NCBI GenBank assembly: GCA_965645245.1
Contig: OZ287068.1
Location: forward strand, 1,550,001 to 1,614,000
Source of the DNA: Massalongia carnosa
Taxonomy: Eukaryota
Length of the DNA: 64,000 nucleotides
Reading direction: 5' to 3'
The translations under genes and the position numbers were made by a program. Of this stretch, positions 7,918 through 44,701 are shown piece after piece (the first letter of the stretch is position 1; the number at the start of each line of letters is the position of its first letter). The notes under the pieces are model-generated. The model saw nothing but the letters and a program-made list of their open reading frames with translations. It made no database searches and was not told the origin of the DNA.

Positions 7918-10900
7918 GCACACGGAGTAAATATCTCGTTATTCGATAATAACATGCAATATTTGCAAACCAAAATCGAAAAATTCAATTCGAATATCCA
8001 ACTATGCGATTTACCAAGATGGCTTGCTCGGGATCGTCAAAACAAAGTCACGTCGTCGGTAGTTTTGACTTTCAATAATCAAAAACAAGTGTCAAACGCG
8101 TTAAGAGGTGTGAATATCGCGGGTAGACATTGTGACACGGAAATATTTGCTTCCGTTCGTCCAAACACGCAATGTATTAATTGTCAGAAATTTGGACATA
8201 AGCATTATCAATGCAAAAGTCCGGCAAAATGCAATATATGCGCACAAAGTCATGAAACGCGTAATCATGAATGCACAACATGCAAGTCTAAAATCGCATG
8301 CGCACATGTAATTCTGAAATGCGTCAATTGCAACAAAATCGTCAATCGAACGATATAGGTTGCGAAATGTTTATCTCGCTAAATCCTAGAAAATCGAATG
8401 ATGAATTAATGCTTGGTTAATGGCGGGACAACATTCGTTGACAAATATCGAAAATACACAAAATGTCAAATTTATTCAACATAATTTTGCAAAGTCAACG
8501 AATGCAATGATTTCGTGTCTGGAATATGCAGTATTAAATCGTGTTGATATTGTTTTATTTCAGGAACCATGGACGCGAGATCAAAAAACAATTTCCCATC
8601 CGTCATTCACATGTTTTATGCAGAAAATAGCGACTTATCGGCCGAGAGTAGCTATATTCGTTACAAAATGCAATCCAAAATTACAATGCACGCCTAGAAC
8701 GGATCTTATTAACGATTCTGATCTGCAAATTATCGAAATTACAATTGATGAAGTTCGAAAAGTGCAGATATTTAACCTTTACAATGAAAAAAGTCTAAAC
8801 GATAGAGAAACATATACAATCGATCGACTTTTAGTTAAATATCAACCTATATCAACTGATCAATTTATTATATGTGGAGATTTCAATGCACATCATAGCT
8901 GGTGGAATTCGAAGATTCAAAATGCAATTCGATCAGAAAATCTAGTCAAATGGTTAAAATTAAACAAATGTAGTTTGATATATACGCCTGATCTATATAC
9001 ATTTTTTGGTTATTCATGAAACTCTTCATCTATTATTGATTTAACATTTGCAAATTCTAAAATCGAAAACGCTATTACGAATTGGTCAATCGATGAAAAC
9101 GCAGTCACGGGTTCAGATCATGAAATTATTCGATTTGAACTTATCTCGTCTTTCAAGAACTTGACGTCACACGCAAAAGCATTTTCGAATAAATACAACT
9201 GCAATAAAGCCGATTGGGATATATTCGCGAAGTTTCTAGACGAAAATGCAATAAACTACGAGTCCCAAATACAAAGTCTATTGAACAATTATCAATTTGA
9301 TGAATCAGCGTTATATTTGCAAAACGTTATCAAAAACGCGGCGGAAATGTTTATTCCGAAGACAAAAATATGCGCAAAATCGAAAAATTGGTGGTCGCAA
9401 GATTTAACCGGACTTCAAAAAATCATGTGTAGACATCGTCGAGAATGGAAGAATAATCCGTCCTATTTTAGTCATCAAACATTTAGACAAAGTCGAATCG
9501 AGTACTTTCATGCAATTCGAAAAGCGAAACAGCAAACTTGGTTGGCTTTCCTCGAAAACGCAGCGAATAAAGACGTATTTACAGCTTATAAATACACTAA
9601 ACCGCGCATGTTCGAAAAAATACCACCTATTCAATATGAAAATAAGTTAAATGTTCAATTCGATCACAAATGCGATGCGTTTGTGTCAGCAATGTACACA
9701 AAAAACCCGTTCACGGATGATAATATTGAAGATTTAACGAATCAAGACAGCGAAAATGACAACAATTAGCCGAATTTAACCGAAAATGAATTGCAAAATG
9801 CAATTAGTATGTTTAATCCAAAGAAATCATGTGGACCTGATACAATCAATTTCACAATAATTCAAAAATCGTTTCAACCATTGAAAAACATGTTTTTTAC
9901 TATTTATTCTAAATTTATACAAATCGGTTATCACCCGTTATGTTGGCGAAAAGGACTCGGTGCTGTTTTAAAAAAACCTAATAAACCAGACTACTCGCTG
10001 CCAAAATCATATCGAATTATTACCTTACTGAATTGTCTTGGTAAAATTGCGGAGAAAATAGTTGCTAATCGACTAGCCTACCTCGGCGAAAATTCGAGAT
10101 TGTTAAATACCGAACAAATGGGCGGACGCAAAAATCATTCTGCAATCGATGCGGTAATGAACGTCGTTCACGATATCGAAATCGCAAACCGAAACAAAAA
10201 CGTTTTATCATGTCTATTACTCGATCGATGTCAAAGGAGCATTTGACTTTGTTTCGATTAATCAATTGCTAAATGTCATGAAAAAGCTGCATTTATCTCG
10301 CATAGTTATTTAATGGGTCAAGCATTTTATGACAAAACGATCGATCAATTTGATATTCGATGAACACAAAAGCAAAACGCACTATATCGAATCTGGAATT
10401 CCACAAGGTTCACCTATTTCGCCAATTCTATTTCTGATTTATATTCGTTACTTATTTCCGAAAATACGAATGAAATTCAATGCTCATTCACCTAGCTTTA
10501 TAGACGATGTTGCAATATATGTCGAAAATAAAACTGCCAAACAGAACTGCAAAGAAATCGAAATTATCGTCAAAACAGCTTTTTATTGGGCCGCAACGAA
10601 TAATGTCAAATTTGATGACGACAAATCTGAGTTGATTCACTTCGAAAAGTCAAGAAATACATCAGAAGACAAAGTGCAATTACCAAACGGGACAATACTA
10701 GAACCGAAAAATTCTGTCAAATGGTTAGGAGTCTGGTTAGACCGAAAACTAAATTACAAAAAACACGTCGAAACGCGAATTGCTTCTGCAAATCGATCGT
10801 TTTTCGCAATTCAAAATTTGATGAAGTCTGAATGGGGTCTAAAGCCAACTGCATGCAGACAGCTCTATTTGTCATGCATTATTCCTATTTCGGACTATGG

Positions 10901-15912: not shown

Positions 15913-17343
15913 TTTTTTTTAATTTATTCATTAAGTGTATTCAACCTAAGGTTATGACACTAACCTATTTTAGGATATGTTTCTATATTAGAAATAAACC
16001 AACCCTTTATAACCCATCTATGTATCGTCAATTTTTCCCCATTTTTACTCCGTGTTAGTAACAACCTATAGTAATCGAAGAATATCGATTTTACAATTTG
16101 TCTTTGTAAGTTCGTGAATCTTTCAGCTTAAATCGTTTCTGATTTTACTACTGTTCGATATCTCCCCAACCTCCAGTTTCGAAAATCTCGTTATCAAGCT
16201 GACCTAGTATCCATTTTCTAGTCGAGATTTTGTTATTGACAATGAATTTAATCAAAATATCATTTCCGATTTTTGTATTAAACAAGATATTCAAGTTGAT
16301 CGTAGTATCGATATTTTGTTTCATGTTTTGAATTTCATCGAAATAGTGAATGCAATTAAATAACAAGTGTTCTGGCGTTTGTCGTTGATTGCATAGATTT
16401 ATGCATTTTGACGAATTATAATCTTTCAATCGCTGTAAATACGATCGAAAATAGCCGTGTCCGAATTTTAATTGCATAATAGTAGCAAATATCAATTTGG
16501 AACAGTTGTTTGATAAATAATAAAATCTCGATATGCCAGGTTTCATTTCGAATTTCTCGTAGTATTTACCTTTTGATTTGCATTGTTGCCATTGATTCGT
16601 CCATGTGGTTAGCGTATTTTGATTTATTTGATCTTTTATATAATCAAATGTTATCGCCGAGGACTCGACTAGGATTTGCTTATGGCCCGTCTTTGCTATT
16701 TTGTCTTCAATTTCGATTCCGGTAATATTTGAATGACTCGGAACCCATTGCAAAATCACCTGATAATTGCTTTCAAATAAGCGTTTTGCAAGCTTTCGAA
16801 TTTGTCTTGCGAAAATATGATTTGTCAAGTTATGAATTTCGTTTATCGCGTTTCTACTATCAGAAAAAACCCAAATCGTTTTTTCTAAGTTCGATAAAAT
16901 ATTAGTATTGGACAATTTATAGACCCAATTCATTGCTTGTAAAATCGCCTGCAGTTCAGCATTTTTTATGCTTGACTGTTTACTTAATTTCCAGCTTTTC
17001 GAAATCGTATGATACTTGATCAGACAATCTTTTTCGATGAATCATTCGATTTTGTAGGTTCTGAAATAGTTTTTCATATTTCTTTTGACCATTATACCAA
17101 ATTTCTGAGCCGTTGTCCGAAATAGGAATAATGCATGACAAATAGAGCTGTCTGCATGCGGTCGGTTTCAGACCCCATTCGGATTTCATGAAATTCTGAA
17201 TTGCAAAAAATGATCGATTCGCAGAAGAAATCCGCGTTTCGACGTGTTTTTTGAAATTTAGTTTTCGGTCTAACCAGACGCCCGACCATTTGACTACATT
17301 TTTCGGTTCTAGTACTGTCCCGTTTGGTAATTCCAATGTGTCT
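15913..17343 (-). mobile_element. 5'-truncated, internally deleted A-type LINE (L4)
   Basis: Tail at 15913, ORF2 C-terminus 16148-16933, internal deletion near 17038 at aatcttt..cga microhomology, RT C-terminal part to 17343. Confidence 0.9.
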
Positions 17344-17909
17344 TCTCGAAGGTTGATAATTACACCGAAAGCTCAAATCGGCGATATTGACTCACTGTTG
17401 CTTCGAAACCAAATTAATTCGCTTTTTAAAGACGCGAAGTTGACTATCGTTGTTAACACGGTCAAAAAGTCCAAAATCGGTCAAAACATGGTTCTGACTA
17501 CTTGTCCTGAAAACACTTTTGAAGATTTATCGAACAATAAATCAATATGGGAGCATTTATTTGACACACGAATAGTTCGAAAGGACGAATCGTGGTTCAA
17601 AGTCGTCACACAGGGTGTAAACATTGCAATATTTGATGAAAACATGTAATATTTGCAAGACGAAATTCAAAAGTTCAATTCGAACATTCAGTTATGCGAT
17701 TTTCCTAGATGGCTAGCACGTGATCGTCATAACAAGATCAAATCATGCGTTTTCTTGACATTCAAAGATCGAAATATGGCCTCGAACGCTTTAAAAGGAG
17801 TCAATATCGCGGGCCGATACTGTGACACGGAAATATTTACCTCCGTTCGTCCAAACACATAATGCATTAATCGTCAAAAATTTGGACACAAGCATTATCA
17901 ATGCAAAAG
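17344..17909 (+). mobile_element. A2-type LINE ORF1 internal fragment, degenerate
   Basis: RRLIITPKAQIGDIDSLLLRNQ...KFGHKHYQCK; matches ~50788-51354 with stops. Confidence 0.9.
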
Positions 17910-17910
17910 G

Positions 17911-17966
17911 ATCGGTCCTCCTCCTTCTATACCATCGGTCCTCCTCCTTCTACACCATCGGTCCTC
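17911..17966. repeat. 23-bp tandem repeat, ~2.5 copies
   Basis: atcggtcctcctccttctaYacc at 17911, 17934 and partially at 17957. Confidence 0.9.
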
Positions 17967-18138
17967 ACCACGGAGACGCCAAAGGCCTCACCGTGGAGCG
18001 ACCGACAAACATAGATTTGCTCCTATCTTTTCGCATCAAAACGATGCTAATTTAACGCGGTCACCCGCGTCGCAGACGAACGTACGGAAGAGGATACGAA
18101 GGCCAACCGCCGGGGGGTAGAATGCGCGCGTCCCTGCA

Positions 18139-18878
18139 ACATGCTTCTAAGGGTTCAAGTCCCTTCATGCAGTCATCAGCTGGAAGAAGATGTGGACCAA
18201 AGGAGCCGTATCATCATCCCCCACCCGGGCACAATCGACACGCGTTCTAGCTCCTGAGAGTTCAAGTCTCCCCATGCAGTCATCAGCTGGGATCAACAGA
18301 ACGCGTAAAGGCACCGGGGCGAATGCTGTCACCTCAATAAAACTCCATCTCGGAGCAGAATAACAATATCCCATTTAATAGGCCCGGCCTGTTAAATAAA
18401 ATCGAGGAAATCACAGAGTCACAAAACACATAGTCATCAATCACACGTTTTACAAAGCACACATATACAAAGCACACAGTCACAAACATACAGTCGCAAA
18501 CACACAGTCAAAAAACACAAAGTCACAAAACACACAGTCACAAATCAATAACACGTCCCTGTTAAGGGGGTTCTGCGGGGGCTCGTTAAGACAGATCTGC
18601 ACCCCGTTAATAACGGCGTACATATTTTTAGAGGTTCAAGTCCTTTCTAGCAGTCATCATCTGAAAATGATGCATTTTGACACGGGCATGGGGTGGATTT
18701 GACACGGGTAGACCTCGATGAATCACAAAACGAATGAAAAGAGTTCAGCGGAACTTCGTTAATATTGTGCTCTAAGACCTCGTTAATAAGATTTTCATAG
18801 ACCTCGTTAACAACGTTCAGTTATACTCTTAAAGGTTCAAGTCCTTTCATGCAGTCATCGGCTGAGAGCTAAAGACGT
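18139..18878. repeat. Four dispersed copies of a 35-bp structured motif containing a B-box/T-loop (GTTCAAGTC)
   Basis: Cores at 18148-18182, 18255-18289, 18629-18663, 18830-18864, each closed by complementary flanks. Confidence 0.85.
18411..18545. repeat. Degenerate CA-rich minisatellite (cacaaaacacacagt-like, ~15-bp period)
   Basis: Repeated cacagtcacaaa / cacatagtca motifs. Confidence 0.7.
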
Positions 18879-19338
18879 ACGACACGGGTCAGCTATATCT
18901 GTCATACGGCTCTCCTTCGTCTACAACAGGAAGCCCTCCGGCTGAAAGAAATAAAACATATAGAAACATATTGTAGGGTCACACCCTACTCGATATAAGG
19001 GATTTGGGTTATGAAAACTATCCGATTGATGGCTACCGTGAGCAACACGGCCCGCACAGGAGTCGTACCGGGGATGGTGGAGGCAACCTAGTCATCAAAT
19101 AGGGCACAATTGGGACAAGAAGAGGGCAATATACGAGGAACCCGTTAATTGATAACAGTCTAGGCTCTGAGCTAATAGACGAATTTCAAACGAGCACCAC
19201 TCCGAGTTGTCCTCGACTCGTTTTGGTTAGTAGGGACGGAGAATCGATATTATACTGCCTGGTCAAGAGCATAGTAGTCGAAATCCCTGCGAGACATGGT
19301 CGGTTCATAAACGGGAGACCTTTATGAATAACGCGAAG

Positions 19339-20644
19339 TGAAAAAGCTGCATTTATCTCGCATAGTTATTATTAAATCGGTCAAGCATTTTATGACAAAA
19401 CGATCGATTATTTTGATATTCGATGAACACAAAAGCAAAACGTACTATATCGAATCTGGAATTCCACAAGGTTCACCCATTTCGCCAGTTCTATTTCTGA
19501 TTTATATTCGTTACTTATTTCCGAAAATACGAATGAAATTCAATGCTCATTCACCTAGCTTTATAGACGATGTTGCAGTATATGTCGATGTCATAAAATG
19601 CCTCCGACCTCACCACGTGCCTCTATCACGTGCCTTGATCTGATGACTACTCACGGACGTCGTGCCATGCCTTCGGGACCTTCATATCATTCTTCGAATT
19701 CGCCGATTACTGATCATTAATCAGCCTCGCATTGATGATTTATTCCCGTCTTTCGACTATTATCATGTCTAATAGCTTCGCATTGATGTTTGACATCTCC
19801 CGTCTCCTCGCTGACCCTATCGTGCTTATTGCCGCTATAATGCCCCTCATTCATCATCGCACTGACTAGACATCATTCGCCGCCACCCTAGAAAGATGAA
19901 TATGGGAGGACAAAGATATAAGAAAGAAGTCGAATCATGGAAGTTCTGATTCTTTGTCGAACGTCTTGAATAGCCAACCTAGCCTAGCCTAGATTCATAG
20001 CTATCGACTCAATCAATAAGCTTGACCATCAACCCACCTTGCCTTTGCCCTTGCCCTCGACCTGATTTCGTGACAGTCGAAAATAAAACTGCCAAACAAA
20101 ATTGCAAAGAAATTGAAAATTATCGTCAAAACAGCTTTTGATTGGGCCGCAACGAATAATGTCCAATTTGATGACGACAAATCTGAGTTGATTCACTTCG
20201 AAAAGTCAAGAAATGCATCAAAAGACAAAGTGCAATTACCAAACGGGACAATACTAGAACCGAAAAATTCTGTCAAATGGTTAGGAGTCTGGTTAGACCG
20301 AAAACTAAATTACAAAAAACACTTCGAAACGCGAATTGCTTCTGCAAATCGATCGTTTTTCGCAATTTAAAATTTGATGAATTCTGAATGGGGACTAAAA
20401 CCAACTGCATGCAGACAGCTCTATTTGTCATGCATTATTCCTATTTCGGACTATGGCTCAGAAATCTGGTATAACGGTCAAAACAAATATGAAAAGCTAT
20501 TTCAGAATCTGCAAAATCGAATGATTCGAAAGATTTTAGGCACATTCAAAACCACGCCTGTTCAGGCGATGGAAAATGAATCGCATATTTTACCAGCCAA
20601 GCTACGATTGTTGATGAAAAATCAAAATACGCAATTCGATTATT
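19339..20644 (+). mobile_element. B-type LINE RT-region fragment, interrupted by a solo LTR
   Basis: KKLHLSRIV...PQGSPISP...FIDD to AIRLL; strand flips at ~20645. Confidence 0.9.
19589..20075. mobile_element. Solo LTR (487 bp) of a family not otherwise present in the window
   Basis: TGTCA...TGACA termini; 5-bp TSD gtcga at 19584-19588 and 20076-20080; LINE sequence resumes exactly. Confidence 0.92.
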
Positions 20645-23600
20645 AAGAATACGGATAAGCTGACTAGGATAAGGTTTACTCGATTTTTTCTCGTCTTCGT
20701 TCCATTCAGCATATCTGTTGTTCCATAAACTAGTGTCAAAACCGATATTTTCAAATTTCACCGAATAGGTACTGGGAATTCTTTGACAAATAGGATTATT
20801 TTCGGCAATCTTCAATAATCGAATTGCGTATTTTTGATTTTCCAGCAACAATAGTAGCTTGGCTGGTAAAATATACGATTCAATTTCCATTGCCTGAACA
20901 GGCGAGGTTTTGAATGTGCCTAAAATCTTTCGAATCATTCGATATTGCAGATTCTGAGATAGCTTTTCATATTTCTTTTGACCATTAAACCAGATTTCTG
21001 AGCCATAGTCCGAAATAGGAATAATGCATGACAAATAGAGCTGTCTGCATGCAGTTGGTTTTAGTCCCCATTCAGACTTCATCAAATTTTGAATTGCGAA
21101 AAACGATCGATTTGCAGAAGCAATTCGCGTTTCGAAGTGTTTTTTGTAATTTAGTTTTCGGTCTAACCAGACTCCTAACCATTTGACAGAATTTTTCGGT
21201 TCTAGTATTGTCCCGTTTGGTAATTGCACTTTGTCTTTCTTTTGATACATTTCTTGACTTTTCGAAGTGAATCAACTCAGATTTGTCGTCATCAAATTTG
21301 ACATTATTCGTTGCGGCCCAATCAAAAGCTGTTTTAACGATAATTTCGATTTCTTTGCAATTCTGTTTGGCAGTTTTATTTTCGACATATATTGCAACAT
21401 CGTCTATAAAGCTAGGTGAATGAGCATTGAACTTCATTCGTATTTTCGGAAATAAGTAACGAATATAAATCAGAAATATAATTGGCGAAATTGGTGAACC
21501 TTGTGGAATTCCAGATTCGATATAGTACGTTTTGCTTTTGTGTTCATCGAATATCAAATTGATCGATCGTTTTGTCATAAAATGCTTGACCCATTGAATA
21601 ACTATGCGAGATAAATGCAGCTTTTTCATGACATTTAGCAATTGATTAATCGAAACAAAGTCAAATGCTCCTTTGACATCTAGTAATAGACATGATAAAA
21701 CGTTTTTGTTTCGGTTCGCGATTTCGATATCATGAACGACGTGTATTACCGCATCGATTGCAGAATGATTTTTGCGTTCGCCTATTTGTTCGTTATCTAA
21801 CAAGCTCGAATTTTCGCCGAGGTAGGCTAGTCGATTAGCAACTATTTTCTCCGCAATTTTACCAAGACAATTCAGTAAAGTAATAATTCGATATGATTTT
21901 GGCAGCGAGTAGTCTGGTTTATTAGGTTTTTTTTAAACTGCACCGAGTCCTGTTCTCCAACATAACGGGTGATAACCGAATTGTATAAATTTAGAATAAA
22001 TAGTAAAAAACACGTTTTTCAATGGTTGAAACGATTTTTGAATTATTGTGAAATTGATTGCATCAGGTCCACATGATTTCTTTGGATTAAACAAACTAAT
22101 CGCATTTTGCAATTCATTTTCGGTTAAATTCGGCCAATTGTTGTCATTTTCGCTGTCTTGATTCGTTAAATCTTCAATATTATCATCCGTGAACGGGTTT
22201 TTTGTGTACATTGCTGACACAAACGCATCGCATTTGTGATCGAATTGAACATTTAACTTATTTTCATATTGAATAGGTGGTATTTTTTCGAACATGCGCG
22301 GTTTAGTGTATTTATAAGCTGTAAATACGTCTTTATTCGCTGCGTTTTCGAGGAAAGCCAACCAAGTTTGCTGTTTCGCTTTTCGAATTGCATGAAAGTA
22401 CTCGATTCGACTTTGTCTAAATGTTTGATGACTAAAATAGGACGGATTATTCTTCCATTCTCGACGATGTCTACACATGATTTTTTGAAGTCCGGTTAAA
22501 TCTTGCGACCACCAATTTTTCGATTTTGCGCATATTTTTGTCTTCGGAATAAACATTTCCGCCGCGTTTTTGATAACGTTTTGCAAATATAACGCTGATT
22601 CATCAAATTGATAATTGTTCAATAGACTTTGTATTTGGGACTCGTAGTTTATTGCATTTTCGTCTAGAAACTTCGCGAATTTATCCCAATCGGCTTTATT
22701 GCAGTTGTATTTATTCGATAATGCTTTTGCGTGTGACGTCAAGTTCTTGAAAGACGCGATAAGTTCAAATCGAATAACTTCATGATCTGAACCCGTGACT
22801 GCGTTTTCATCGATTGACCAATTTGTAATTGCGTTTTCGATTTTAGAATTTGCAAATGTTAAATCAATAATAGATGAAGAGTTTCCTGAATAAGCAAAAA
22901 ATGTATATAGATCAGGCGTATTTATCAAACTACATTTGTTTAATTTTAACCATTTGACTAGATTTTCTGATCGAATTGCATTTTGAATCTTCGTATTCCA
23001 CCAGTTATGATGTGCATTGAAATCTCCACATATGATAAATTGATCAATTGATATAGGTTGATATTTAACTAAAAGTCAATCAATTGTATATGTTTCTCGA
23101 TCGTTTAGACTTTTTTCATTGTAAAGGTTAAAGATCTGCAGATGCTACAATTATCAGCATAAAGCCAACCCCCAAAACATCGGTACCCTATATTTTGATA
23201 TACTGAAACTTTCCCAACTTATTCTCCTCATTCTTCTCATTCATTTGAGCCTATCAGAAGCTAAAACCCATCAGAATTGGGTACAGGAGAGCTCTTCCAC
23301 TGCTCCTGCAGAGTTTTCCTCGCGGTCTGTCCGCCCCTTCACCAAAAAGCGCGTCCAAAAAATCTACAAAACACAAAAACACCAACAACAACGTCAAAAA
23401 TCGCTCGATTTTCGATATTTCTTCGGTTTAATTGTCGCATAGATCTCATCTATAATCACAAAAATTATCTACAAAATATCATCACTGTCGCGTAACTGTA
23501 CAACCTGTTCTCGAGACAACAAAACTTCTTGGTGTTCATTTGAAATTTAAGGTTACCGGTACCGTATACACTATTCCATTTTGGGTTTTTTCGATTTTCG

Positions 23601-25637: not shown

Positions 25638-28600
25638 TGGCGGGACAACATTCGTTGACAAATATCGAAAATACACAAAATGTCAAATTTATTCAACATA
25701 ATTGTGCAAAGTCAACGAATGCAATGATTTCGTGTCTGGAATATGCAGTATTAAATCGTGTTGATATTGTTTTATTTCAGGAACCATGGACGCGAGATCA
25801 AAAAACAATTTCCCATCCGTCATTCACATGTATTATGCCGAAAATAGCGACTTATCGGCCGAGAGTAGCTATATTCGTTACAAAATGCAATCCAAAATTA
25901 CAATGCACGCCTAGAACGGATCTTATAAACGATACTGATCTGCAAATTATCGAAATTACAATTGATGAAGTTCGAAAAGTGCAGATCTTTAACCTTTACA
26001 ATGAAAAAAGTCTAAACGATCGAGAAACATATACAATCGATCGACTTTTAGTTAAATATCAACCTATATCAACTGATCAATTTGTCATATGTGGAGATTT
26101 CAATGCACATCATAGCTGGTGGAATTCGAAGATTCAAAATGCAAATCGATCAGAAAATCTAGTCAAATGTTTAAAATTAAACAAATGTAGTTTGATAAAT
26201 ACGCCTGATCTATATACATTTTTTGCTTATTCAGGAAACTCTTCATATATTATTGATTTAACATTTGCAAATTCTAAAATCGAAAACGCAATTACAAATT
26301 GGTCAATCGATGAAAACGCAGTCACGGGTTCAGATCATGAAGTTATTCGATTTGAACTTATCGCGTCTTTCAAGAACTTGACGTCACACGCAACCGCATT
26401 ATCGAATAAATACAACTGCAATAAAGCCGATTGGGATAAATTCGCGAAGTTTCTAGACGAAAATGCAGTAAACTACGAGTCCCAAATACAAAGTCTATTG
26501 AACAATTATCAATTTGATGAATCAGCGTTATATTTGCAAAACGTTATCAAAAACGCGGCTGAAATGTTTATTCCAAGACAAAAATATGCGCAAAATCGAA
26601 AAATTGGTGGTCGCAAGATTTATCCGGACTTCAAAAAATCATGTGTAGATATCGTCGAGAATGGAAGAATAATCCGTCCTATTTTAGTCATCAAACATTT
26701 AGACATAGTCGAATCGAGTACTTTCATGCAATTCGAAAAGCGGAACAGCAAACTTGGTTGGCTTTCCTCGAAAACGCAGCGAATAAAGACGTATTTACAG
26801 CTTATAAATACACTAAACCGCGCATGTTCGAAAAAATACCACCTATTCAATATGAAAATAAGTTAAATGTTCAATTCGATCACAAATGCGATGCGTTTGT
26901 GTCAGCAATGTACACAAAAAACCCGTTCACAGATGATAATATTGAAGATTTAACGAATCAAGACAGCGAAAATGACAACAATTGGCCGAATTTAACCGAA
27001 AATGAATTGCAAAATGCGATTAGTTTGTTTAATCCAAAGAAATCATGCGGACCTGATGCAATCAATTTCACAATAATTCAAAAATCGTTTCAACCATTGA
27101 AAAACGTGTTTTTTACTATTTATTCTAAATTTATACAAATCGGTTATCACCCGTTATGTTGGCGAACAGGACTCGGTGCTGTTTTAAAAAAAACCTAATA
27201 AACCAGACTACTCGCTGCCAAAATCATATCGAATTATTACCTTACTGAATTGTCTTGGTAAAATTGCGGAGAAAATAGTTGCTAATCGACTAGCCTACCT
27301 CGGCAAAAATTCGAGCTTGTTAGATACCGAACAAATGGGCGGACGGAAAAATCATTCTGCAATCGATGCGGTAATGAACCTCGTTCATGATATCGAAATC
27401 GCAAACCGAAACAAAAACGTTTTATCATGTCTATTACTCGATGTCAAAGGAGCATTTGACTTTGTTTCGATTAATCAATTGATAAATGTAATGAAAAAGC
27501 TGCATTTATCTCACATAGTTATTCAATGGGTCAAGCATTTTATGACAAAACGATCGATCAATTTGATATTCGATGAACAGAAAAGCAAAACGTACTATAT
27601 CGAATCTGGAATTCCACAAGGTTCACCAATTTCGCCAATTCTATTTCTGATTTATATTCGTTACTTATTTCCGAAAATACGAATGAAATTCAATGCTCAT
27701 TCACCTAGCTTTATAGACGATGTTGCAATATATGTCGAAAATAAAACTGCCACACAGAATTGCAAAGCAATCGAAATTATCGTCAAAACAGCTTTTGATT
27801 GGGCCGCAACGAATAATGTCAAATTTGATGACGACAAATCTGAGTTGATTCACTTCGAAAAGTCAAGAAATGCATCAAAAGACAAAGTGCAATTACCAAA
27901 CGGGACAATACTAGAAACGAAAAATTCTGTCAAATGGTTAGGAGTCTGGTTAGACCGAAAACTAAATTACAAAAAACACGTCGAAACGCGAATTGCTTCT
28001 GCAAATCGATCGTTTTTCGCAATTCAAAATTTGATGAAGTCTGAATGGGGACTAAAGCCAACTGCATGCAGACAGCTCTATTTGTCATGCATTATTCCTA
28101 TTTCGGACTATGGCTCAGAAATCTGGTATAACGGTCAAAAGAAATATGAAAAGCTATTTCAGAATCTGCAAAATCGAATGATTCGAAAGATTTTAGGCAC
28201 ATTCAAAACCACGCCTGTTCAGGCGATGGAAATTGAATCGCATATTTTACCAGCCAAGCTACGATTGTTGATGAAAAATCAAAAATACGCAATTCGATTA
28301 TTGAAGATTGCCGAAAATAATCCTATTTGTCAAAGAATTCCCAGTACCTATACGGTGAAATTTGAAAACATTGGTTTTGACACTAGTTTTTGGAACAACA
28401 GATATGCTGAATGGAACGAAGACGAGAAAAATCGAGTAAACCTCATCCTAATCAGCTTATCCGTATTCTTCATTCCGTTTCGGATATAGTTCACAAAACT
28501 GATGAATTCGAATCAGTAAATAATTTCATCAAACCATGGAAGCCGTCTTGTAAAATCAAGTTCCAAATCGAAAGATCAAAAGAAACAGCAAAGTCTAGTT

Positions 28601-34044: not shown

Positions 34045-34880
34045 ATGAGAGGCATTGAGAAAGAAGTTCCTGACCAATCAGACGCTTTGCACCCCTCAAT
34101 TCTGAAAGAACAGGCTAAAAAGAATAAACCCAGCGTACAAAGCATAATTGACTCCATGCCCTCTCCGTCATCAAATTATTGTCCAATTTCGATCCCATTT
34201 CGAAAACCACAGCCGGACGAGACGTTGCGCTTGATAAATCAGACTCCTTTCAGTTTATTCTGCCTCTTCTTTAGCTGTGAAATGCTTGAAAGCATAGCTA
34301 AAAACACCATTCTTAAAGCGAAAAAGAAGTATGCCCTTAACGACATCAAGAGACGTCAACGGCATGACACCTCTTCTTCTGAAGTAGGAGCTTTTCGGGT
34401 AATTATATTATATATGGGGTATACACTAATGCCACGTCTTACTGACTATTGGAACACGTCTCCTAAATTTGCCATACATGACATGGTGATTCAAGCCATG
34501 AGTCTTCGAAGATGGGAGCAACTCAAGCGATTTTTGAAGATATCCAACCCCGACGAAGATGAGATCATTGATACTCGAGGCCTTGATTGGTGGAAAAAGC
34601 TGGAACCATTGGCCACAGACTTTCGAAAAGCATCAAAGAAATACTGGATTCCTGGAAGTCATGTATCAGTTGACGAGCAATTGATTTTATTTAGGGGTAG
34701 GAGCTGCCCTACTATGCGAATAGGCACCAAGGCGGCTGGTATAGGCTTTAAAATCTATAGTTTATGTCAGGAATCAAACATTGATGACGGGGACATTCTG
34801 TGTATAGTATGGGTTGATTTAAACACCCTGCAATTCATGACCACGGTTCATACAATTGAGGAGTTGAAGACTTCTTTCTA
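34045..34880 (+). pseudogene. piggyBac transposase (DDE_Tnp_1_7-like), interrupted and probably internally deleted
   Basis: PFSLFCLFFS, RLTDYW, MSLRRWEQLKRFL, HVSVDEQLILFRGR, KAAGIGFKIYSLC, WVDLNTLQFMTTVH. Confidence 0.88.
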
Positions 34881-36169
34881 ATCGTCGGCTAGTGTAATGG
34901 GCTACGAGACTAGTAAGCTTATCACGAGCGACACTAATCTCGAAAGGGGAAATGCTCAGCGTGAGAGGAGGACGATAGCTACTACGTGCTAGTCTCCGAG
35001 AGTATATGTGATCCAAAGAACTACTGGATGTGGAAGTGCTTGGACCAAGAGATCTCGTCCGAGACCCAAACGTAGGTTGTTTATAGAATAAAGACTAATT
35101 GCTAACGAATACTACAAGATTCGTTCTGATATTTATCCTACTCACCCCAAGCCTATAGCCTTGGGAGCCTTGGAACCTTAGGAGCCTTGCAAGCCTTGGG
35201 AGTCTTGCGAGCATTATAGCCTTGCAATCCACATCCGACTTTATCGCATTACATCCAACCATCCCTCAGGATCCATCCACGAACTCGGCGTTCGCTGGAT
35301 CATCTAGTCAGCCTCGAGCAGCCTTCTAGATCTTCCCTTGCAAGGTAGAACAATTCTACCCCCGGCTAGATCCCTCACTACATGCCTCAGGCTATGTAGC
35401 TTTATTTCGCCGTCACCACTACCTAGTGATGGAAGGTTACCTCCGACTGAATACCTCGCTACACTGCGGACCTTACTCTAGACACAAGGTCTAGACAACG
35501 AGGTCATGTAGGTTCATTCAGCCGACATCACTACCAACGTAGTAATAAAGGTTAAAGCTGAAGTTTATACCAGGGAGCCTAGCTCAAGCTGCGTCCAGCG
35601 AGCCGTGCCTCCTGCTACCTCTCTTGATCCATCAAGAGATCCAGTAGCTCCGAGTAGGCCAGTAGATCCCATATAGAGTTCCTTTGCGTCTCCACAGGAG
35701 TCCGCCTTACACTCCATGGCAATCTACCACCACGGCCTCGACAAGTGTTTGATCTGTGAGTAGTCAAGAACGTGATAACAATAACTCCGAAGTTTCGGGG
35801 CAAGATGGCAGTGTGTCTGTGTAGCACGTCGACCTAGATAGAATCTAATAGGGACTATGTACGAAAACTAGTAAGATGAAGAAAGAAAGCTATGTACAGA
35901 TCGCCGGTTAATAAACACTCATACCCGTGCTAAGCCTAATGCAGGTTTTTATCACCGTCGTTGAACTGCTCAGACCACGCGTGTTAATAATATCGCTACA
36001 AGCAGTGCTAAATCCGTTTTCGGTTAGATAAGGTGAATAGCACTACGTCATGTGTTGCCTGAGGTTAGAGCGTTGTAATCCGTGACATTACCCCCTTCTT
36101 TAGATCGCGAATCACCTGATCGCGATTAGCGCCGTTCTTGTCAGGTGACGTAATTCCCGTTGACTGTTG

Positions 36170-39100
36170 TCAACCTGGTGCGAAATTCCACCGTGGTTTG
36201 CTAGGATAGCGCACATAGAAATCCTCCACTATCTCCTTAGCATTTTCAAATCCATTAGCATCGTACCAATCTGGATCTTCCGGATGGTCCTTCCATTTGA
36301 CTCGAAATTGCACCTTTCCTCTTCGCCTTCTGGCATCCAGCACGTCATCAACTTCCCATTCTTCCTTACCTTCTATCACTACCGGAGTGGCTGGATCATT
36401 GATCTGCCCTGGTAATGGATCCACCGCGGCCTTTCTCAATAGACTAGTGTGGAATACATTATGAATTTTCATCGATTCGGGCAGAGCTAGCCTGCACGAT
36501 AACCCAATCATCTTGTCTATTCGGTACGGTCCGATCATCTTGTGGTCCAGTTTCTTCGAAGTTCTCTCGGTATGGATATTTTTCGTTGACAACCAAACCA
36601 TATCGCCCTCTTCATAGCTGACCTCCTTTCGATTCTGATTAGCCACCCTTTGCTGTCTATCCTGCGACTTCTTCATGTTTTCGTGAACGAACTCCCAGGT
36701 TTTCTTCATCCTTTCGGTGATATTTTGGGCACGTTCCTTAGCTAACCTTTCTCGAGTAGTATCTGCAGATAGATCAACCACATCGAAACTTATCCTTGGT
36801 TCATATCCCTTTGTGGCCATAAACGGTGTCAACTTGGTGGAGGCCGATTCGCAAGCATTGGCCGCAAACTCCGCCATCGGTAGTAGCATCACCCAATCAT
36901 CCTGGAAATAGTTTACATAGCTGCGCAGGTGTCGCTCTATTTCCTGATTGGCTATCTCGCTCTGGCTATCGGTTTCCGGATGAAATGCTGTGGAGAGTTT
37001 GGCCGTTATACCCAGTATTTTGCACATCGTTTTCCAGACCGCCGATACAAACTGCGGTCCCCGATCGGATACTATGCTACTGGGCAACCCATGGTATTTC
37101 CAGACGTTATTGATCAACAACTTCGCCGTTGCTTCGCTCGTGGTTCCATGTTCCTCGGTAGTGCATGGTATGTAATGCCTTTCCTTCGATAATCGATCTA
37201 CCACCATAAGAATCGCATTGAATCCTTCGCCCGACAGTGGAAGGCCCGTTACGAAGTCTAGTGATATATCCTGCCATAGTTGTTCGGGTATAGATAATGG
37301 CCTCAACAAACCATTGTACTTATCTCTAGGTGCTTTCGCGCGTCTGCAAACATGACAATTCCGTATATACCGTTTGATATCCGCTTCCATTTTGGGCCAG
37401 TAGTAATTCCGAGTTATCATCTCCAAGGTTCGAGCGACGCCAGGGTGCCCTACAGCTGGCTGATCATGAATCTGACGGATTACCTCCAGTTTCAATTCAT
37501 CCTGTGCGGGCACCCATAGCTTATTCCGCTTGTATAGCAAGCCGTCCTTGACCTGACAGTCTTTTAACGCCGGCGAGTTTTCCGAGTCTGAATCAAGTCC
37601 AGTGCTTGCAGCACTCAATGCCTGACGCATATTATTGTAATCCTCATCTGTGACATTGCCCTGCCTTACCTTTTCTTCCAAGGTCTGAACAGTCTCTTCC
37701 GTTTCTGTCTCGATGGGCGCCAGTTCGATGCGATTGCGGGGCAACAGAGTCTGTAGCTGATGCTGTTGGCGTTCGTCCTTCTCATCCTTGGGCTTATCAT
37801 TGGGTCTCCGGGTTAGAGCATCAGCCTTTTCATTATTTTTACCCGTTTGATAAACGATGACGAAGTTGAACTCAGATAGGAATTCCGCCCATCTAGCCTG
37901 TCGACGGGTCAACTTTTTGGTAGTCATGAAAAATTCCAAACTCTTGTGATCGGTGAAGACCTTTATAGGTATTTCTGTGCCTTCCAATTCTGGTCTCCAT
38001 TGTTCAAAGCATCGAATGATAGCTAACAGTTCTTTATCGTAGATCTCGTAATTGCACTCGGCCGGGCTCATGTTCTTTGAGAAGAAGGCTACCGGATGCA
38101 ACTCGTCATCCTCACCCATTTGGGACAGAATACCCCCACTGACATAATCCGAAGAGTCTGTTTCTAACCAACACTGTAGTTTTGGATCGAAATGAGCAAG
38201 AACAGGTGCTTCCACCACTCGATCCTTCAGGTCCTGGAACCCCTGAGCCAAGCTTCGGTCTATTCGAAGATTCTATCCTTCTTGGCCAGTGCATTTAATG
38301 GTCCAGCTAGTTTGGAAAAGCCTCGAATGAAGCGCCGATAGAAGTTGCAAAAACCTATAAATGATCGCACCTCGCGAAGACAGGTAGGAACGCTCCATTC
38401 CATGATAGCCTTTATCTTTTCCGGGTCCATCTTGATACCATCCGTGCTGATGATCAGGCCCAAATACTTCGTTTCAGTGACGTGGAATTCACACTTATCC
38501 ACATCGGCTTGAATGCCTGCCTCTCTTAACTTGGTGAGCACTCCCCTTACATGCTGACGGTGTTGTTTCAGATTTCTGCTATAGATCAGAATGTCATCCA
38601 GATAGGCCGTACAAAATTTGTCTAAGTATTCAAAGAGGACATCATTAATGAAGTGCTGCCACGAAGCCGGTCCTCCAGTCAATCCAAATGGTAACACCTT
38701 GTATTTATAGGCCCCAAACCGTGAGTTGAAGGTGGTGAGGTCCTCCGACGCAGCCTCCATCCGAAGTTTATGAAAGGCCTGACGAATATCTATTTTGGAG
38801 AATATTTTAGCCTCTTTCAACTGAGCCAACGTTTCCTCGATCAAAGGTATTGGATAACGATCCTTTTTAGTGATCTGATTCAGCCTTCGGTAATCTACGC
38901 AGAACCGTAATCCACCACTAGGCTTTTTCGCTAACAGAATGGGCGATGAGCATGCGGCATGGCTTGCTTCGATAAAGCCTTTTCTGAGATTGTCTTCTAG
39001 ATATTTCTTGACAAACTCCAGTTCTTTCTGGGACATGCTCCGAAGAGGACTATATCCATGATCTTTGCCCCCTTCGAGCAGTATCTTGTGATCATGCAAT

Positions 39101-39981
39101 CTATGAGGTGACAACGTATCAGAATCTATCTTCGAAAACACGTCCAAAAACTCGTGATACTCCGGCGGCACTACCAACTTTGGATCAGTAGGAGGCCTCG
39201 ACTCCTTATTCAACTGATCGTCTATGTCCTTCATCGAGATCGCATAGACTTTTACCGCCTTACAGTGAGTAAGGTATCGGTAGGAGTCTGCACCAATGAT
39301 GGCTACATCAACCGGTTTAGATGGTTTCGGATCGATCCTCGGAACTTCCTTTGGGATTGGAGTAGCCTCCGGTTTATCTTCCATGATAGATCGACGCAAT
39401 ATCTTTCGGGGTGAGATTACTGTAGTCAACTCCTCATCCGTCGATTTTTTATCGATCGTTTCCAGTTTCCTAGGAGGTTCTATCAACTTAGGAGCACCCG
39501 GGTGGGTGCAGTGTCCAGGCCAGAACATGATTTTATCGCAACTCATGTCCATAATGACTCCATGCTTTCGCATCCATGGTTTTCCTAGTATCATTTTATG
39601 CTGCCCCAGCTGTGTAATCAACAGAGGCGAGATTGTTTCCCTATGATTCTGCACGGTGAGGGTAGGATAGATGGCGTGGGTGATAGGTTTACCCAAGCGG
39701 CCATCGAAACATCTCACCGGCTTCGGTTTCGTCAATCGCTGCGGTGATAGTTGCAGTCGTTCACAAATCGTGCGCACCATCTTTTCATCAATAAAAGCAT
39801 GTCCTGTAGCACTAGTGTCTAACAGAGTAACAAGCTCTATTTCTTCCTGGTTGCCTAGTTTACATGAAGTAACAAGAGGTTCATCGGTAAACAAATCACC
39901 AGGCAAACAAGAGGATGAGATCAAAAGAGGTTTATCATCGTCATCTCCACTCGCGTCTTCGAGGGAGATCAGTCTTTTTTT
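36170..39981 (-). pseudogene. pol: Gypsy pol: PR-RT-RNase H-IN-chromodomain, with a nonsense codon and 1-bp deletion at ~38250-38262
   Basis: LLDTSA, RFCVDYR, YLDD, ETDSSD, HHCC, SDRGPQF, EWEVDDVLD..VKWK. Confidence 0.93.
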
Positions 39982-41249
39982 GACTTCGGCTCAACATCTA
40001 ACTCGTTAATGATGGCTGTCATCTTTGATTTCTTTTTAGGGCAGTCCCTTGAGGGATGTCCGACCTCCTTGCAATTGAAGCACTTCCCTTCCCTGCTCAA
40101 CCGCTCCCGTTCCGAGTCCGATAGATAGGATCCTACGGTCCAGGACGACAAGGTCGATGGTGGTGAAGGGGCACGAGACTCGGTGCGAGCATTTGGTGCC
40201 ACATAGGTTTTGCTTTCGGTGGTAGCGGTAGGGGTGTTCGCCGGGACCACTACGCTGGTTGGTTTTTTTCCTTCGGCAAAGCGTTCCATCCTAGCCTTGC
40301 TACGATCCACATCCTTCAGAGCCTGATACATGCGCTGGCAACGCTGAGCGAACGCATATAGGTCGGTTGGTTCGTGATCGCCGGTGGCTAGCTGACGGCG
40401 CATATCTAGGTTGAGCTTGTGTTTCAACTCACCGATTAGGGTAGACTCATTGTGATCCAACTCGGCGGCCAAACGCTGAAACTCCGCCCAAAAGGTATTG
40501 AAGTCCTTTTGACCCTGTCGCAGAGAACGGAATAGGTTCATGGCAGTCTGTTTGCGGTTCGGATCTCCATAAATTCGTTCCAAATGATCAAACATTTCCT
40601 CTGCAGTAAGAAAAGGTTTGATAGCATTTTTTCGGAGACGAGGTTCCAAATGGCCCATAGCCTCTCCGCCGACTCGGTTTTCCACATAGGCCTTTTTAAA
40701 TAGCTCGGTAGGCATATGGTCTTCATTAGCTGCTAATTTGCTGCGCATTTTAGTCAACCAATGATCGATACTCGGTTCTTTTCCATCGATAAAAACCGGT
40801 GGGTCGGGAAGTTTCATCGACTTCCATAAAGATTCTTCGCTCTGATTGGATCGTGCAGGGGAGCCCTGCAGGTCATGTGGAGGTGGAAATGGTGGTGGTG
40901 CATTACTCCCTGCAGGTGCAGTAGCTGCTGTGGCCATCCGCCGAGCCTCTTCAAGTTCTTCCTTCTGGTATTCAATCATACCTGCTTGGCGATTGATTTT
41001 GATCTGACTATCTTCTAAACTAAGCACAAGCTTATTATGTTCCACCACGACCTCCTCATAGTCTGACTTCATGTCTCGTATTATAGCCAAGACTGTTTCA
41101 GCATCCTCCTGCACCCAGTGCCGAAGATGTTGTACTGTTTCTATCCTCCATGGTGAGTCAGCCCCGGGGCCTTCTTCACCGATGTCTATGGGCGGGATGA
41201 GAGACTCCCGTTGATAGTAGGTGGGTGTTTCGTTCGCGGATCTAGCCAT
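39969..41249 (-). CDS. gag: Gypsy Gag, 426 aa
   Basis: KLPDPPVFIDG, LRQG, CFNCKEVGHPSRDC zinc knuckle. Confidence 0.92.
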   Translation of the reverse strand: MARSANETPTYYQRESLIPPIDIGEEGPGADSPWRIETVQHLRHWVQEDAETVLAIIRDMKSDYEEVVVEHNKLVLSLEDSQIKINRQAGMIEYQKEELEEARRMATAATAPAGSNAPPPFPPPHDLQGSPARSNQSEESLWKSMKLPDPPVFIDGKEPSIDHWLTKMRSKLAANEDHMPTELFKKAYVENRVGGEAMGHLEPRLRKNAIKPFLTAEEMFDHLERIYGDPNRKQTAMNLFRSLRQGQKDFNTFWAEFQRLAAELDHNESTLIGELKHKLNLDMRRQLATGDHEPTDLYAFAQRCQRMYQALKDVDRSKARMERFAEGKKPTSVVVPANTPTATTESKTYVAPNARTESRAPSPPSTLSSWTVGSYLSDSERERLSREGKCFNCKEVGHPSRDCPKKKSKMTAIINELDVEPKSKKD

Positions 41250-43092: not shown

Positions 43093-44701
43093 GACGTAAC
43101 ACGCAACCGCATTATCGAATGTAATCCTACGCCTGAACAACAAGAAACACAAGTACCGCAACTTTTGATACACTATAACTTTAACAGTCAATTGAGCCTC
43201 TATTTCTCAGTCATTTGCGCTCCTCCAGAGTTAAAACGCTCTCAGATTGAGTGTAGGAGAGCTCTAGCAAAGCTCCAGCAGAGTTTTTCTGCTGGTCGCA
43301 CGCAACCGACGTGATAAAGCGCGCTCTAGAAGTTGGAAAAAACAACAAATACCAACAACCTCACCAAAAATCGCTCTTTTTTCTTGTTTTCTTCTGTTCT
43401 GTTGTCGCATGACCTTCAATTATTACTATAAAAATTATCTACAAAAATTATCTACTCTCGCGGGACTGTACAACAACTGTCGCGACGTCAGAGTCTTCTA
43501 AAGTTCATTCCTCATTTAAGGTTACGGGAACTTCCGCAAGCACAAATTTTCATAGCATATTTCACGTATAATTTTTGCACATTCCATTTTCGGCTTTATA
43601 GATCTTCGTTGAACGGCCGGTCAACAGATCACTGAAAAGAAGGGTAAAAACGTCTGGAATAGGATTATACCAAAAGTCCTGTTTCAGATTAATCAGAATA
43701 GGAAGTCTCCTATTGTCTTACATTGCATTAAAATTTATCTTTATTGAAAAAAGCAAAAAAAAAAAAAAAACTTTCATTATTTTCACCTATTGTAGTGTCT
43801 GGTAAAGGGTTAAATAAGACTTACTGCCTTAGCGAGGAACGGTCTATTTTAACCCGATTAGGATTTATTTGACGCGTTATAGTCAAATAAATAGGGATAG
43901 GAAAGAAAGAGTCATTTGACCAGTAAACAAACAGGTGTAAATTCTATTCTGACTAGTACGTCCGGGGAAAGTCAGAATAAATTATTTGGTGGCGATAAAA
44001 GGGATATTGCAAAGGCAAAAACACTATGCTCAATCGAAGATTTAACCCGATAGGTCATAGACCAAATCGATTGATACCAACAACTCCTCCCCCAGGCCCC
44101 CCTCCACAACATCTATGGGTCCCCCCGAGTACTCCCCCGTGCCCCCCCCGAACCGACTCCCCCACGCCATCTTCGGTAGCGATAATTGGGAGCAACCCCC
44201 TAACCGTAGAATCCACGGAGGCCATGGACCAAACGCGAGAATTTTCGTCCGCACCGTCCACACCCACCCCAAAAACGAAACCTTTTGTCGCGCCATCTGG
44301 TGAATTCAGTACCAATCTGCCCATGCCATCATTGAATTCTGATATTCGACTGAGTCCACCAATTAAACGCAACAAAAGACGAACATTTGACGAACATTCG
44401 ATTGAGAGTCAAGAAGTCATCAATCGATCAAAATCGATTCAACTATTGAATACGGCAAAAAATGCATTATTAGAGTCATTCGTAATAGATCAAAACCCCG
44501 AAACTGTTAGAATGTACAAATCAGGTTACTTCATTTCAGCCGCACTCACCTTCTACCGCACGAGTATGGCGCACGCTAATGGCTAGACGTATCGCTAGTC
44601 TAATACTAGCATACCGTACATTGTCTATAAATCTAGCTATTCCCACTATATAGAACAACAGCAAGCGTTCTATCCTCTATCTACTATACTACCTTTTGAT
44701 A

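Follow-up and report, generated by a model that had tools for sequence, protein, structure and literature searches.

What is the element that occurs in four copies between positions 18,139 and 18,878 of a 64,000-nucleotide stretch of contig OZ287068.1 (positions 1,550,001 to 1,614,000 of the forward strand; this whole 64-kb stretch is hereafter referred to as the window), and that can be drawn in every copy as an RNA three-way junction with a hairpin resembling the T-arm of tRNA? The question was raised by a reading made from the letters of the DNA alone (hereafter the sequence-only reading), in which the copies were left without explanation. Taken jointly, the structure of the motif, its strand and its genomic context make it rather probable that the copies are the cores of repeated modules within the non-coding 5' part, referred to here as the head, of a chimeric retroelement, in which the head is fused to a long interspersed nuclear element (LINE).

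The four copies were detected by a repeat finder as direct repeats of about 47 nt at 18139-18185, 18246-18292, 18620-18666 and 18821-18867, each scored as 79% identical to copy 1, and also by a degenerate pattern of 20 bases, whose matches in the window are exactly these four, all on the plus strand; the expected number of matches was 0.01, and none of 100 shuffled sequences attained four. The positions given by the sequence-only reading were thus confirmed, and the layout proposed there is correct: the 5' strand of the closing stem P1 is followed by a T, a 5-bp stem (P2) with the loop TTCAAGT, the linker CATG or CTAG, a hairpin (P3) formed by CAG and CTG around a 7-nt loop (L3; TCATCAG, TCATCAT or TCATCGG), and the 3' strand of P1. 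A single junction is about 43 nt in size, and the four span 18144-18868.

All four junctions lie on the plus strand. Copy 1 (18144-18186) has P1 of CTTC/GAAG and P2 of AAGGG/CCCTT, and its minimum free energy (MFE) structure contains P2, P3 and the closing stem, the last being 1 nt out of register. Copy 2 (18251-18293) has P1 of TCC/GGA and an additional outer stem, ACGCGTTCT/AGAACGCGT, at 18240-18248 and 18298-18306; a copy with an outer stem of this ACGCGT type is found also in L005, L006 and L008, three of the metagenome loci described below. Copy 3 (18625-18667) has P1 of ATTTT/AAAAT and an L3 loop decayed to TCATCAT, and copy 4 (18826-18868) has P1 of CTCT/AGAG. A covariance model (R1) built from 49 distinct instances of the motif gave scores of 68.3, 62.1, 59.3 and 67.2 bits to copies 1 to 4, that is, 59.3-68.3 bits for the window copies, and the next best match in the 64 kb scored 8.6 bits. 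Pair -1/+1 of P1 reads C-G, C-G, T-A and T-A in the order of the copies, pair -2/+2 T-A, C-G, T-A and C-G, and pair -4/+4 C-G, mismatch, T-A and C-G, and two-sided changes were found at three of the five pairs of P2. The flanks forming the closing stem had been described as complementary within each copy and unrelated between copies; the former stands, but the latter does not, for the 5' side is pyrimidine-rich and the 3' side purine-rich, and the copies differ mostly by transitions that preserve pairing. The window copies appear decayed and enriched in AT. A remnant of a fifth module was located at 19143-19175 (plus strand) by alignment with L005, L019 and L028: a CGTTAA box is retained, then 41 nt are missing near 19149, a deletion that took out the 5' strand of P1 through P2, so that only a decayed 3' half of the junction is left.

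By scanning a metagenome collection with the exact pattern of the motif, a total of 33 loci were identified on 30 distinct contigs. When up to four substitutions were allowed, 86 instances were counted in these 33 loci and the window, and the 49 distinct sequences of 59 nt were aligned without gaps (alignment A1). With a three-helix structure including a 4-bp P1, standard pairs were found in 96.4% of the 588 stem cells of the 49 instances; this level was reached by none of 500 shuffles (mean, 84.2%), in which the relatedness of the copies was ignored, and pairing dropped to 46-62% when the partner strand was slid by 1-3 columns. Two-sided changes were observed at nine of the 12 pairs (4/4 in P1, 4/5 in P2 and 1/3 in P3), with 111 compensated cells, and P3 has switched from CAG/CUG to GAG/CUC in two instances. 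The loop of P2 is TTCAAGT in 46 of the 49 instances and TTTAAGT in three, and neither G18 nor C26 varies. Conservation is highest in the loops, and that of the junction itself is low, consisting of one invariant U and a C-N-N-G linker. On extension of P1 to 12 ungapped pairs, 65% of the cells pair because bulges are present in many copies; P1 varies in length from 3 to 11 bp, and forms 7-11 continuous pairs in nine of 38 non-redundant instances.

The strand of the RNA was indicated by the wobble pairs. Over the 12 pairs, G·U was found on the plus strand in 39 cells and A·C, the combination that reads as G·U when the minus strand is taken, in nine; after collapsing one near-identical tandem family the numbers were 33 and 6. 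The plus strand is therefore the RNA. Its fold was also more stable than that of the minus strand in 39 of 50 instances. The junction fold is thus under purifying selection for structure over sequence, as a plus-strand RNA. The suggestion of selection made from the four copies is borne out by the 96.4% pairing and by this G·U/A·C asymmetry, and the claim that pairing is kept while the stem varies by the two-sided changes in the window and the same pairing level among the 49 instances. A ribozyme-like RNA of the minus strand, proposed on the basis of a CUGAUGA loop, is disfavored by the same asymmetry and by the folding preference; the CUGAUGA sits in a hairpin loop, no conserved GAAA accompanies it, and the hammerhead model of Rfam gave no match at E up to 10.

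The first hairpin agrees with what we take to be the textbook consensus of the T-arm and B-box, a 5-bp stem closed by G53-C61 and a 7-nt UUCRANN loop: the 5-bp stem closed by G-C was found together with a 7-nt loop, the loop having been required by the scan pattern. The block GTTCAAGTC, conserved in 46 of the 49 instances, presumably fits the B-box consensus as well. The likeness to tRNA ends there, however, and no tRNA-like sequence was found beyond the T-arm. No tRNA gene was detected in the 64-kb window by ARAGORN, no A-box was seen 30-60 nt upstream of the B-box on inspection of the module flanks (made by eye and not by a formal scan), and, at E up to 10, no Rfam model including that of tRNA matched 17900-19100. 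At the gathering threshold, Rfam 15 gave no match in the window and in the 20 of the 33 loci scanned. L005 showed three weak matches far below gathering (E 0.5-6.6), one of which, ceN28 (18.2 bits, the gathering score being 70), overlaps only the last 20 nt or so of module 4. The exact pattern had no match in a prokaryotic genome collection and none in a viral collection, and no description of the motif was found in the full-text literature searched. The sequence-only reading had named a match to decayed tRNA or short interspersed nuclear element (SINE) fragments as the finding that would speak against it; ARAGORN and the tRNA model of Rfam both found nothing of the kind. A set of 15 fungal RNA motifs was described by Li and Breaker in 2017 (PMC5640933), and, judging from the section names and descriptions in that paper, the junction appears not to be among them.

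The statement that no element in the window explains the motif proved to be wrong, because the copies sit within a 1.43-kb repeat of high copy number, the head of the head-LINE chimera. This head fragment (17910-19340, plus strand) is a single copy in the window and contains all the motif copies; its 3'-terminal 380 nt or so and the original junction with the LINE are missing. When contigs of four public runs (X1, X5, X6 and X3), none of which is on record as RNA, were aligned to 17800-19450, the segment 17911-19340 was highly abundant, being found on 3425, 216, 141 and 8 contigs in the four runs, mostly at 90-99% identity. Loose ends were observed at 17911 and 19340 in all four runs, and other copies extend past 19340. 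The fragment is colinear with L005 590-1712, sharing with it short tandem repeats, four modules and a conserved tail.

The 5' side of the head fragment carries 2.4 units of a 23-nt tandem repeat (17911-17966, plus strand), and comparable repeats of about 24 nt are located at the same place in L005 (590-650). Run X1 copies seem to carry extra 23-nt units upstream. Each head contains 1-5 modules, arranged as tandem monomers of 183 bp in one family and as units of about 116 nt in another. Upstream of the junction stand 1-3 CGTTAA boxes, the nearest being 17-19 nt before the junction U in the modules that carry boxes, and downstream, in most modules of the loci, 1-3 ACGGGCA or ACGGGTA boxes beginning 17-22 nt after P3 (both by hand count). 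Junctions flanked by such boxes were found in most modules of the loci and in copies 3 and 4 of the window, where, all on the plus strand, three (C/T)GTTAA boxes precede copy 3 (18560-18610), three CGTTAA boxes precede copy 4 (18757-18810), and ACGGGCA and ACGGGTA boxes follow copy 3 (18682-18710). Six of the 24 plus-strand CGTTAA sequences of the window fall within the 1.43-kb head fragment.

Two further repeats were noted in the head. A 15-nt tandem repeat of about nine units with 75% matches lies between modules 2 and 3 (18408-18544); no counterpart was seen in L005 by eye, no search having been made, and the repeat has probably expanded locally. The palindrome ACGCGT was met repeatedly, in the window (18240-18245 and 18301-18306), in L005 (around 680-760) and in L007 (around 300-330). 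In the window it forms the outer stem of copy 2, whereas in the loci it appears in (T)GACGCGTC words that are repeated ahead of the first module; a box bound by a protein, or a portion of a longer stem, could account for it.

Downstream of the modules, the head ends in a structured tail. Its first 117 nt are retained in the window (19222-19340, plus strand), being 73-76% identical to those of 17 loci, and the continuation past 19340 in runs X1 and X5 agrees with the tail consensus. The full tail is about 175 nt in the loci (L005 1585-1760; L019 2096-2274), is 72-76% conserved across families, and gives a consensus fold with covarying helices such as CCAGGA/UCCUGG against CUAAG/CUUAG and CAGG/CCUG against CGGA/UCCG; for 10 sequences, alifold gave an energy of -43 kcal/mol. 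It is present twice in heads of the L019 type. The tail represents a second candidate RNA family, without a match to Rfam in L005; by eye, the only way in which an HDV-like ribozyme was looked for in it, no matching P1 was seen. The 3' terminus of the head consists of a hairpin of the GGTAAGG...CCTTAC type, 10-12 nt, and TTGG, and is followed by the variable junction with the LINE. This terminus is conserved in L019 (2540-2591), L032, L033, L006 and L005 (about 2030-2074), and the hairpin is present in L020, of which the locus ends before the terminus. The conserved hairpin and TTGG suggest a defined signal for 3'-end formation or joining. The modules themselves lie 0.6-1 kb away from this 3' end, where joining occurs.

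The association of the head with LINEs was revealed by tblastn with open reading frame 2 (ORF2) of the window LINE: 10 of the 33 loci matched at E <1e-3, with the reverse transcriptase (RT) always downstream of the junctions and on the same strand. The alignments start at amino acids 320, 495, 635, 692, 721, 723, 795 and 844 of ORF2, and an endonuclease domain is located downstream of the head in L005. In the 183-bp family, 11 copies are alike until about 484-495 nt past the start of the tail and then proceed into nine distinct continuations, several of which are nested offsets of one LINE sequence. The same constant boundary was observed in two further families (L005 versus L008; L033, L022, L014 and L020). 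On the 5' side of the 183-bp family, most copies start at one point next to unrelated AT-rich flanks, and the others are variably truncated. This combination of a constant 3' boundary, variable LINE starts and 5' truncations indicates that the head is a discrete unit of about 1.5-2 kb, that copying proceeds from its 3' end in the 5' direction, and that it is fused each time afresh to LINE bodies of differing truncation. Where the loci reach sufficiently far, the head was seen solely beside LINE bodies, and no solo head was seen. The flanks of the loci are limited to 1.5 kb, so that the 3' ends of the chimeras and their target-site duplications lie beyond reach. Outside the loops, which were fixed in the scan pattern and are identical, the head sequences of different families are 66-75% alike or unalignable, and the LINE partners have 26-38% amino-acid identity to the window ORF2. 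The head was considered also as the 5' untranslated region (UTR) belonging to the LINE itself; this was dropped in view of the one conserved head end against many LINE starts, and the resident LINE copies of the window have other 5' regions without the motif.

The hosts of the head-LINE chimera are probably ascomycete fungi, as suggested by three leads. The gene neighboring the head in L003 is nearest to clusters of Ascomycota, one run carrying the head repeat is labeled as lichen metagenome, and some copies are ridden with C-to-T changes. Such C-to-T and G-to-A changes are clustered in some 183-bp monomers of L012, L015 and L025, affecting for instance the T-like loop and L3, and match what is expected for repeat-induced point mutation in ascomycetes. 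The upstream flanks of these three loci have 23-33% GC.

How the junction might work can be outlined as follows. The core on the plus strand consists of a closing stem P1 that varies between copies (3-4 bp as a minimum and up to 11 bp), one invariant U, a 5-bp hairpin with a G-C closing pair and a UUCAAGU loop matching the T-arm consensus, a C-N-N-G linker and a 3-bp hairpin with a UCAUNNG loop. The T-like hairpin could stack on P1 across the single U, and the short second hairpin with its conserved G could bend towards the T-like loop, in the way the D-loop meets the T-loop in the elbow of tRNA. A tRNA-elbow mimic or processing signal was the first hypothesis of the sequence-only reading, and it is still the best guess at function. 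The mechanism that we tentatively favor over the others, though it is to be held lightly, is that the junction is a compact mimic of the tRNA elbow or T-arm, the unvarying loops of which would be recognized by a conserved tRNA-pathway factor of the host, for which an enzyme of processing, modification, export or ligation would be a candidate. Such a host factor is a likelier ligand than a protein of the transposable element (TE), because the loops are identical across heads that can barely be aligned and across LINE partners of such low identity. Several copies in a head might act additively, keeping the head RNA stable, exported, or near the LINE ribonucleoprotein. The head would be made as a discrete RNA, and at each transposition it would be joined to a partly copied LINE RNA, either by template switch of the RT or by RNA ligation.

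An extended form of this proposal, which we consider rather doubtful, regards the head as a hitchhiker that must always take the front seat, a replicon of structured, non-coding RNA distributed across ascomycetes that is neither a host gene nor a LINE 5' UTR. Having no 3' end on which a LINE could prime, it would have its ...UUGG end re-attached in every generation to a broken or partly copied LINE RNA, the T-loop junctions, as mimics of the tRNA elbow, recruiting for this joining the machinery of tRNA processing and ligation or the LINE particle, and in return it would supply a portable promoter to dead, 5'-truncated LINEs.

Several observations weigh against the identification of the motif as a structured RNA of a fungal head-LINE chimera, or against the mimicry of tRNA. 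The loop invariance is partly by construction, since the scan pattern fixed the loops. Thermodynamic support is modest, with a mean z of -1.37 against mononucleotide shuffles for 50 instances, and all three helices appear in the MFE structure of 12 of the 50; the z values of the window copies are -0.76, -2.31, -0.05 and +0.35, two of them near 0. The order of helices differs from that of tRNA, as the T-like arm comes first and the second hairpin precedes the 3' strand of P1, and P1 is not fixed at 7 bp, so that a simple substrate of RNase P or RNase Z is not obvious. As to the host, the rows of the protein atlas for ORF2 of the window LINE name Arthropoda only, with 1-2 members, and a fungal source for the window itself has the standing of a lead. 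A LINE with a specific target site is set aside only by analogy and by the 5' truncations of the head.

Other explanations must be weighed on the same evidence. It is rather unlikely, though worth consideration, that the element acts at the level of DNA, the B-box cores binding TFIIIC and forming, with the CGTTAA, ACGGGCA and ACGCGT boxes, a modular internal promoter, enhancer or insulator, comparable to the 5' UTR monomers of mouse L1 or to TFIIIC-only boundary sites; the RNA fold would then be left over from an ancestral tRNA or be of secondary importance. Clustered B-boxes of TFIIIC forming a chromatin boundary had been among the hypotheses of the sequence-only reading. The presumed fit of GTTCAAGTC to the B-box consensus and the 183-nt or approximately 116-nt tandem monomers with other short boxes at fixed positions would suit such a role, and the head needs a promoter of its own if new copies are to be expressed; copies of MINE, a fungal chimera of similar build, are reported to be transcribed (PMC2104539). 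The compensatory changes at 4/4 pairs of P1, 4/5 of P2 and 1/3 of P3 and the 39 G·U against nine A·C, however, are left unexplained by DNA binding, and no A-box-like sequence was seen upstream by inspection. The second hairpin and positions 6-7 of the T-like loop exceed what a B-box needs. Depletion of T-runs, which read-through by RNA polymerase III (Pol III) would require, is inconsistent: no run of four or more T was found in eight of nine copies of one family, but across ten heads P ranged from 0.03 to 0.98. A DNA-level role of the B-box with TFIIIC and an RNA fold could coexist. Fragments of decayed tRNA genes or tRNA-derived SINEs without function would account for a T-arm-like sequence in a TE-rich setting, but are hardly credible, given the absence of tRNA from the ARAGORN (64 kb) and Rfam (E up to 10) results, the persistence of covariation and invariant loops across divergent families, the constant position of the motif inside a conserved module of greater size, and the limitation of the tRNA likeness to the T-arm.

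Two more explanations retain an RNA but differ in its partner. That the junctions are binding sites of the ORF1 protein or RT of the partner LINE, by which the head RNA is loaded into the LINE particle while its 3' end serves as the preferred acceptor of template switch, is improbable: the loops are identical across divergent heads and LINE partners, whereas a fast-evolving TE protein should drive co-variation of its sites, and the modules stand 0.6-1 kb away from the 3' end where joining occurs. In its favor are the occurrence of the head only beside LINE bodies in the loci reaching far enough, the multiple copies per head, which suit multimeric RNA-binding proteins, and the repeated re-making of the junction, which calls for physical proximity to the LINE RT (PMC2104539). 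We regard as highly improbable a new small self-cleaving ribozyme, or a cleavage signal for RNase P or RNase Z, that would cut the head, or an RNA transcribed together with it, at every module. The three-way junction, which is as small as a hammerhead and has a closing stem that covaries, may recall a ribozyme, and its T-arm, if stacked on a stem with one bulged nucleotide, resembles the minimal model substrates of RNase P. Ribozymes are also known at the 5' ends of other retrotransposons, and variants similar to the ribozyme of hepatitis delta virus (HDV) are described as abundant in fungi (PMC5640933). In the present motif, however, the loops are the most conserved part and the junction retains only an invariant U and C-N-N-G, the opposite of known small ribozymes; no ribozyme model of Rfam matched at E up to 10, P1 varies from 3 to 11 bp, and 2-5 internal cuts would destroy the head, yet heads are copied in full, their 5' and 3' ends being sharp and common to the copies.

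The window as a whole is eukaryotic DNA saturated with TEs, among them a LINE that occurs several times and has endonuclease, RT and RNase H, together with remains of copia, gypsy and piggyBac. An ORF1 fragment of LINE subfamily 1 (17344-17909, plus strand; 93% identical to 50789-51354 and 59088-58523) abuts the 5' end of the head and is probably the site of head insertion. At the other end, an RT fragment of subfamily 2 corresponding to about amino acids 618-700 of ORF2 (19339-19588, plus strand) is fused directly to the truncated head in the orientation of the motif; it is 95-96% identical to 10279-10525, 21628-21382 and 27492-27738, and continues at 20076-20648 (plus strand) after a unique insert of 487 bp. 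In a contig of run X3, the head segment and the RT piece are separated by 604 nt, which correspond to the missing 380 nt or so of head and about 230 nt of LINE; the window copy was therefore deleted later across the junction. The 487-bp insert (19589-20075) has no other copy in the window and splits the LINE RT exactly between matching LINE positions, being probably a small inserted element. A 306-nt inverted repeat (17039-17344 and 20222-20527) was considered as the terminal inverted repeats of a DNA transposon, but is actually LINE RT in two orientations. In the region 16000-23140, pieces of two LINE subfamilies (about 86-89% alike) are intermixed in both orientations, with deletions and with an inverted junction close to 20642-20648; the region is either a TE graveyard that has undergone rearrangement or, in part, an artefact of assembly. 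Other TE remains are a fragment of a piggyBac-type transposase (34045-34881), a gypsy element with a chromodomain-like tail (36170-41249) and a copia element with a 1221-amino-acid pol ORF (44026-49942).

Compared with known systems, several partial likenesses can be recognized. RNAs that mimic the tRNA elbow include the 3' tRNA-like structures (TLS) of viruses and mascRNA. The junction shares with the tRNA T-arm and TLS the 5-bp stem closed by G-C, the UUCAAGU loop following the T-loop rule, a stackable stem, and a second loop with a conserved G that might play the part of the D-loop, but it is without D arm, anticodon arm and CCA end, has a mirrored order of helices and a variable closing stem, and is internal and repeated. 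The 5' UTR monomers of mouse L1 are tandem units of about 100-200 nt, variable in number and with presumed promoter activity; the modules are likewise tandem units of variable number at the 5' end of a LINE-linked sequence, but the mouse monomers belong to the 5' UTR of the LINE itself, whereas the head is a separate unit placed on truncated LINEs, and to our knowledge no covarying RNA fold is known for them. Clusters of B-boxes act as boundaries at the TFIIIC-only sites of yeasts, the extra TFIIIC (ETC) and chromosome-organizing clamp (COC) sites. The B-box-like sequences here are likewise clustered outside tRNA genes, but flanking covarying stems and a second conserved hairpin are not known at ETC and COC sites.

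Small structured RNAs are also carried in the 5' region of other retrotransposons, such as the hammerhead ribozymes of Penelope-like elements and retrozymes and the HDV-like ribozymes of R2 and fungal elements, as outlined in a paper on fungal RNAs (PMC5640933), and the three-way junction is a further point of likeness; the present junction differs in having no consensus of a catalytic core, conservation in the loops, and no Rfam match. In mammalian chimeras of U6 small nuclear RNA (snRNA) with LINE-1, a small RNA that has a defined 3' end becomes attached to LINE RNA with 5' truncations of varying extent, by the RNA ligase RtcB according to the abstract of the report, and the product is retrotransposed (PMC6789731). 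U6 is, however, a host gene with its own function and loci, and no independent gene is known for the head.

By its architecture, the closest known kind would be the MINE of Magnaporthe, which contains the non-coding RNA WEIRD. In the published description, a full-length WEIRD of 1.1 kb is fused to a 5'-truncated MGL LINE, 28 different junction sites with the consensus GCC|A/U are found in 33 chimeras, and target-site duplications flank the whole chimera (PMC2104539). The expression of MINE was measured, and a template switch of the LINE RT was proposed by the authors; for WEIRD, the same source reported no solo copy and no homologue known at the time, and gave it neither a known structure nor repeats, its function being unassigned in the descriptions of 2005-2007, in which it is an abundant RNA seen in one fungus and always fused to the LINE (PMC2104539). 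Both systems have a non-coding 5' part of about 1-2 kb with a constant 3' end and a LINE of the same orientation truncated at many points (28 sites in 33 chimeras of MINE, nine in 11 copies here), no solo head was seen, and the host is an ascomycete, as a lead in the present case. They differ in that WEIRD is 1.1 kb and the head here about 1.5-2 kb, its architecture being conserved across at least four divergent families and several metagenomes, and in that the head carries a covarying T-loop junction in 1-5 modules and a structured tail.

These observations altogether support well the conclusion that the motif is a new structured RNA in the head of a MINE-like LINE chimera, an element of a kind that is known but little understood. 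Irrespective of what they do, both the motif and the structured tail have good support as candidates for new RNA families, and the covariance model R1 provides a handle for annotating head-LINE chimeras in fungal genomes. If the head is the counterpart of WEIRD, then such heads would be widespread, modular and under strong selection for RNA structure, with a T-loop junction that is not in Rfam, and the system would bear on the capture of other RNAs by LINEs, on the regain of promoters by truncated LINEs and on the use of the tRNA pathway by retroelements; and if the hitchhiker proposal is true, it would represent a new mode of non-autonomous retrotransposition and would account for the WEIRD RNA of MINE.

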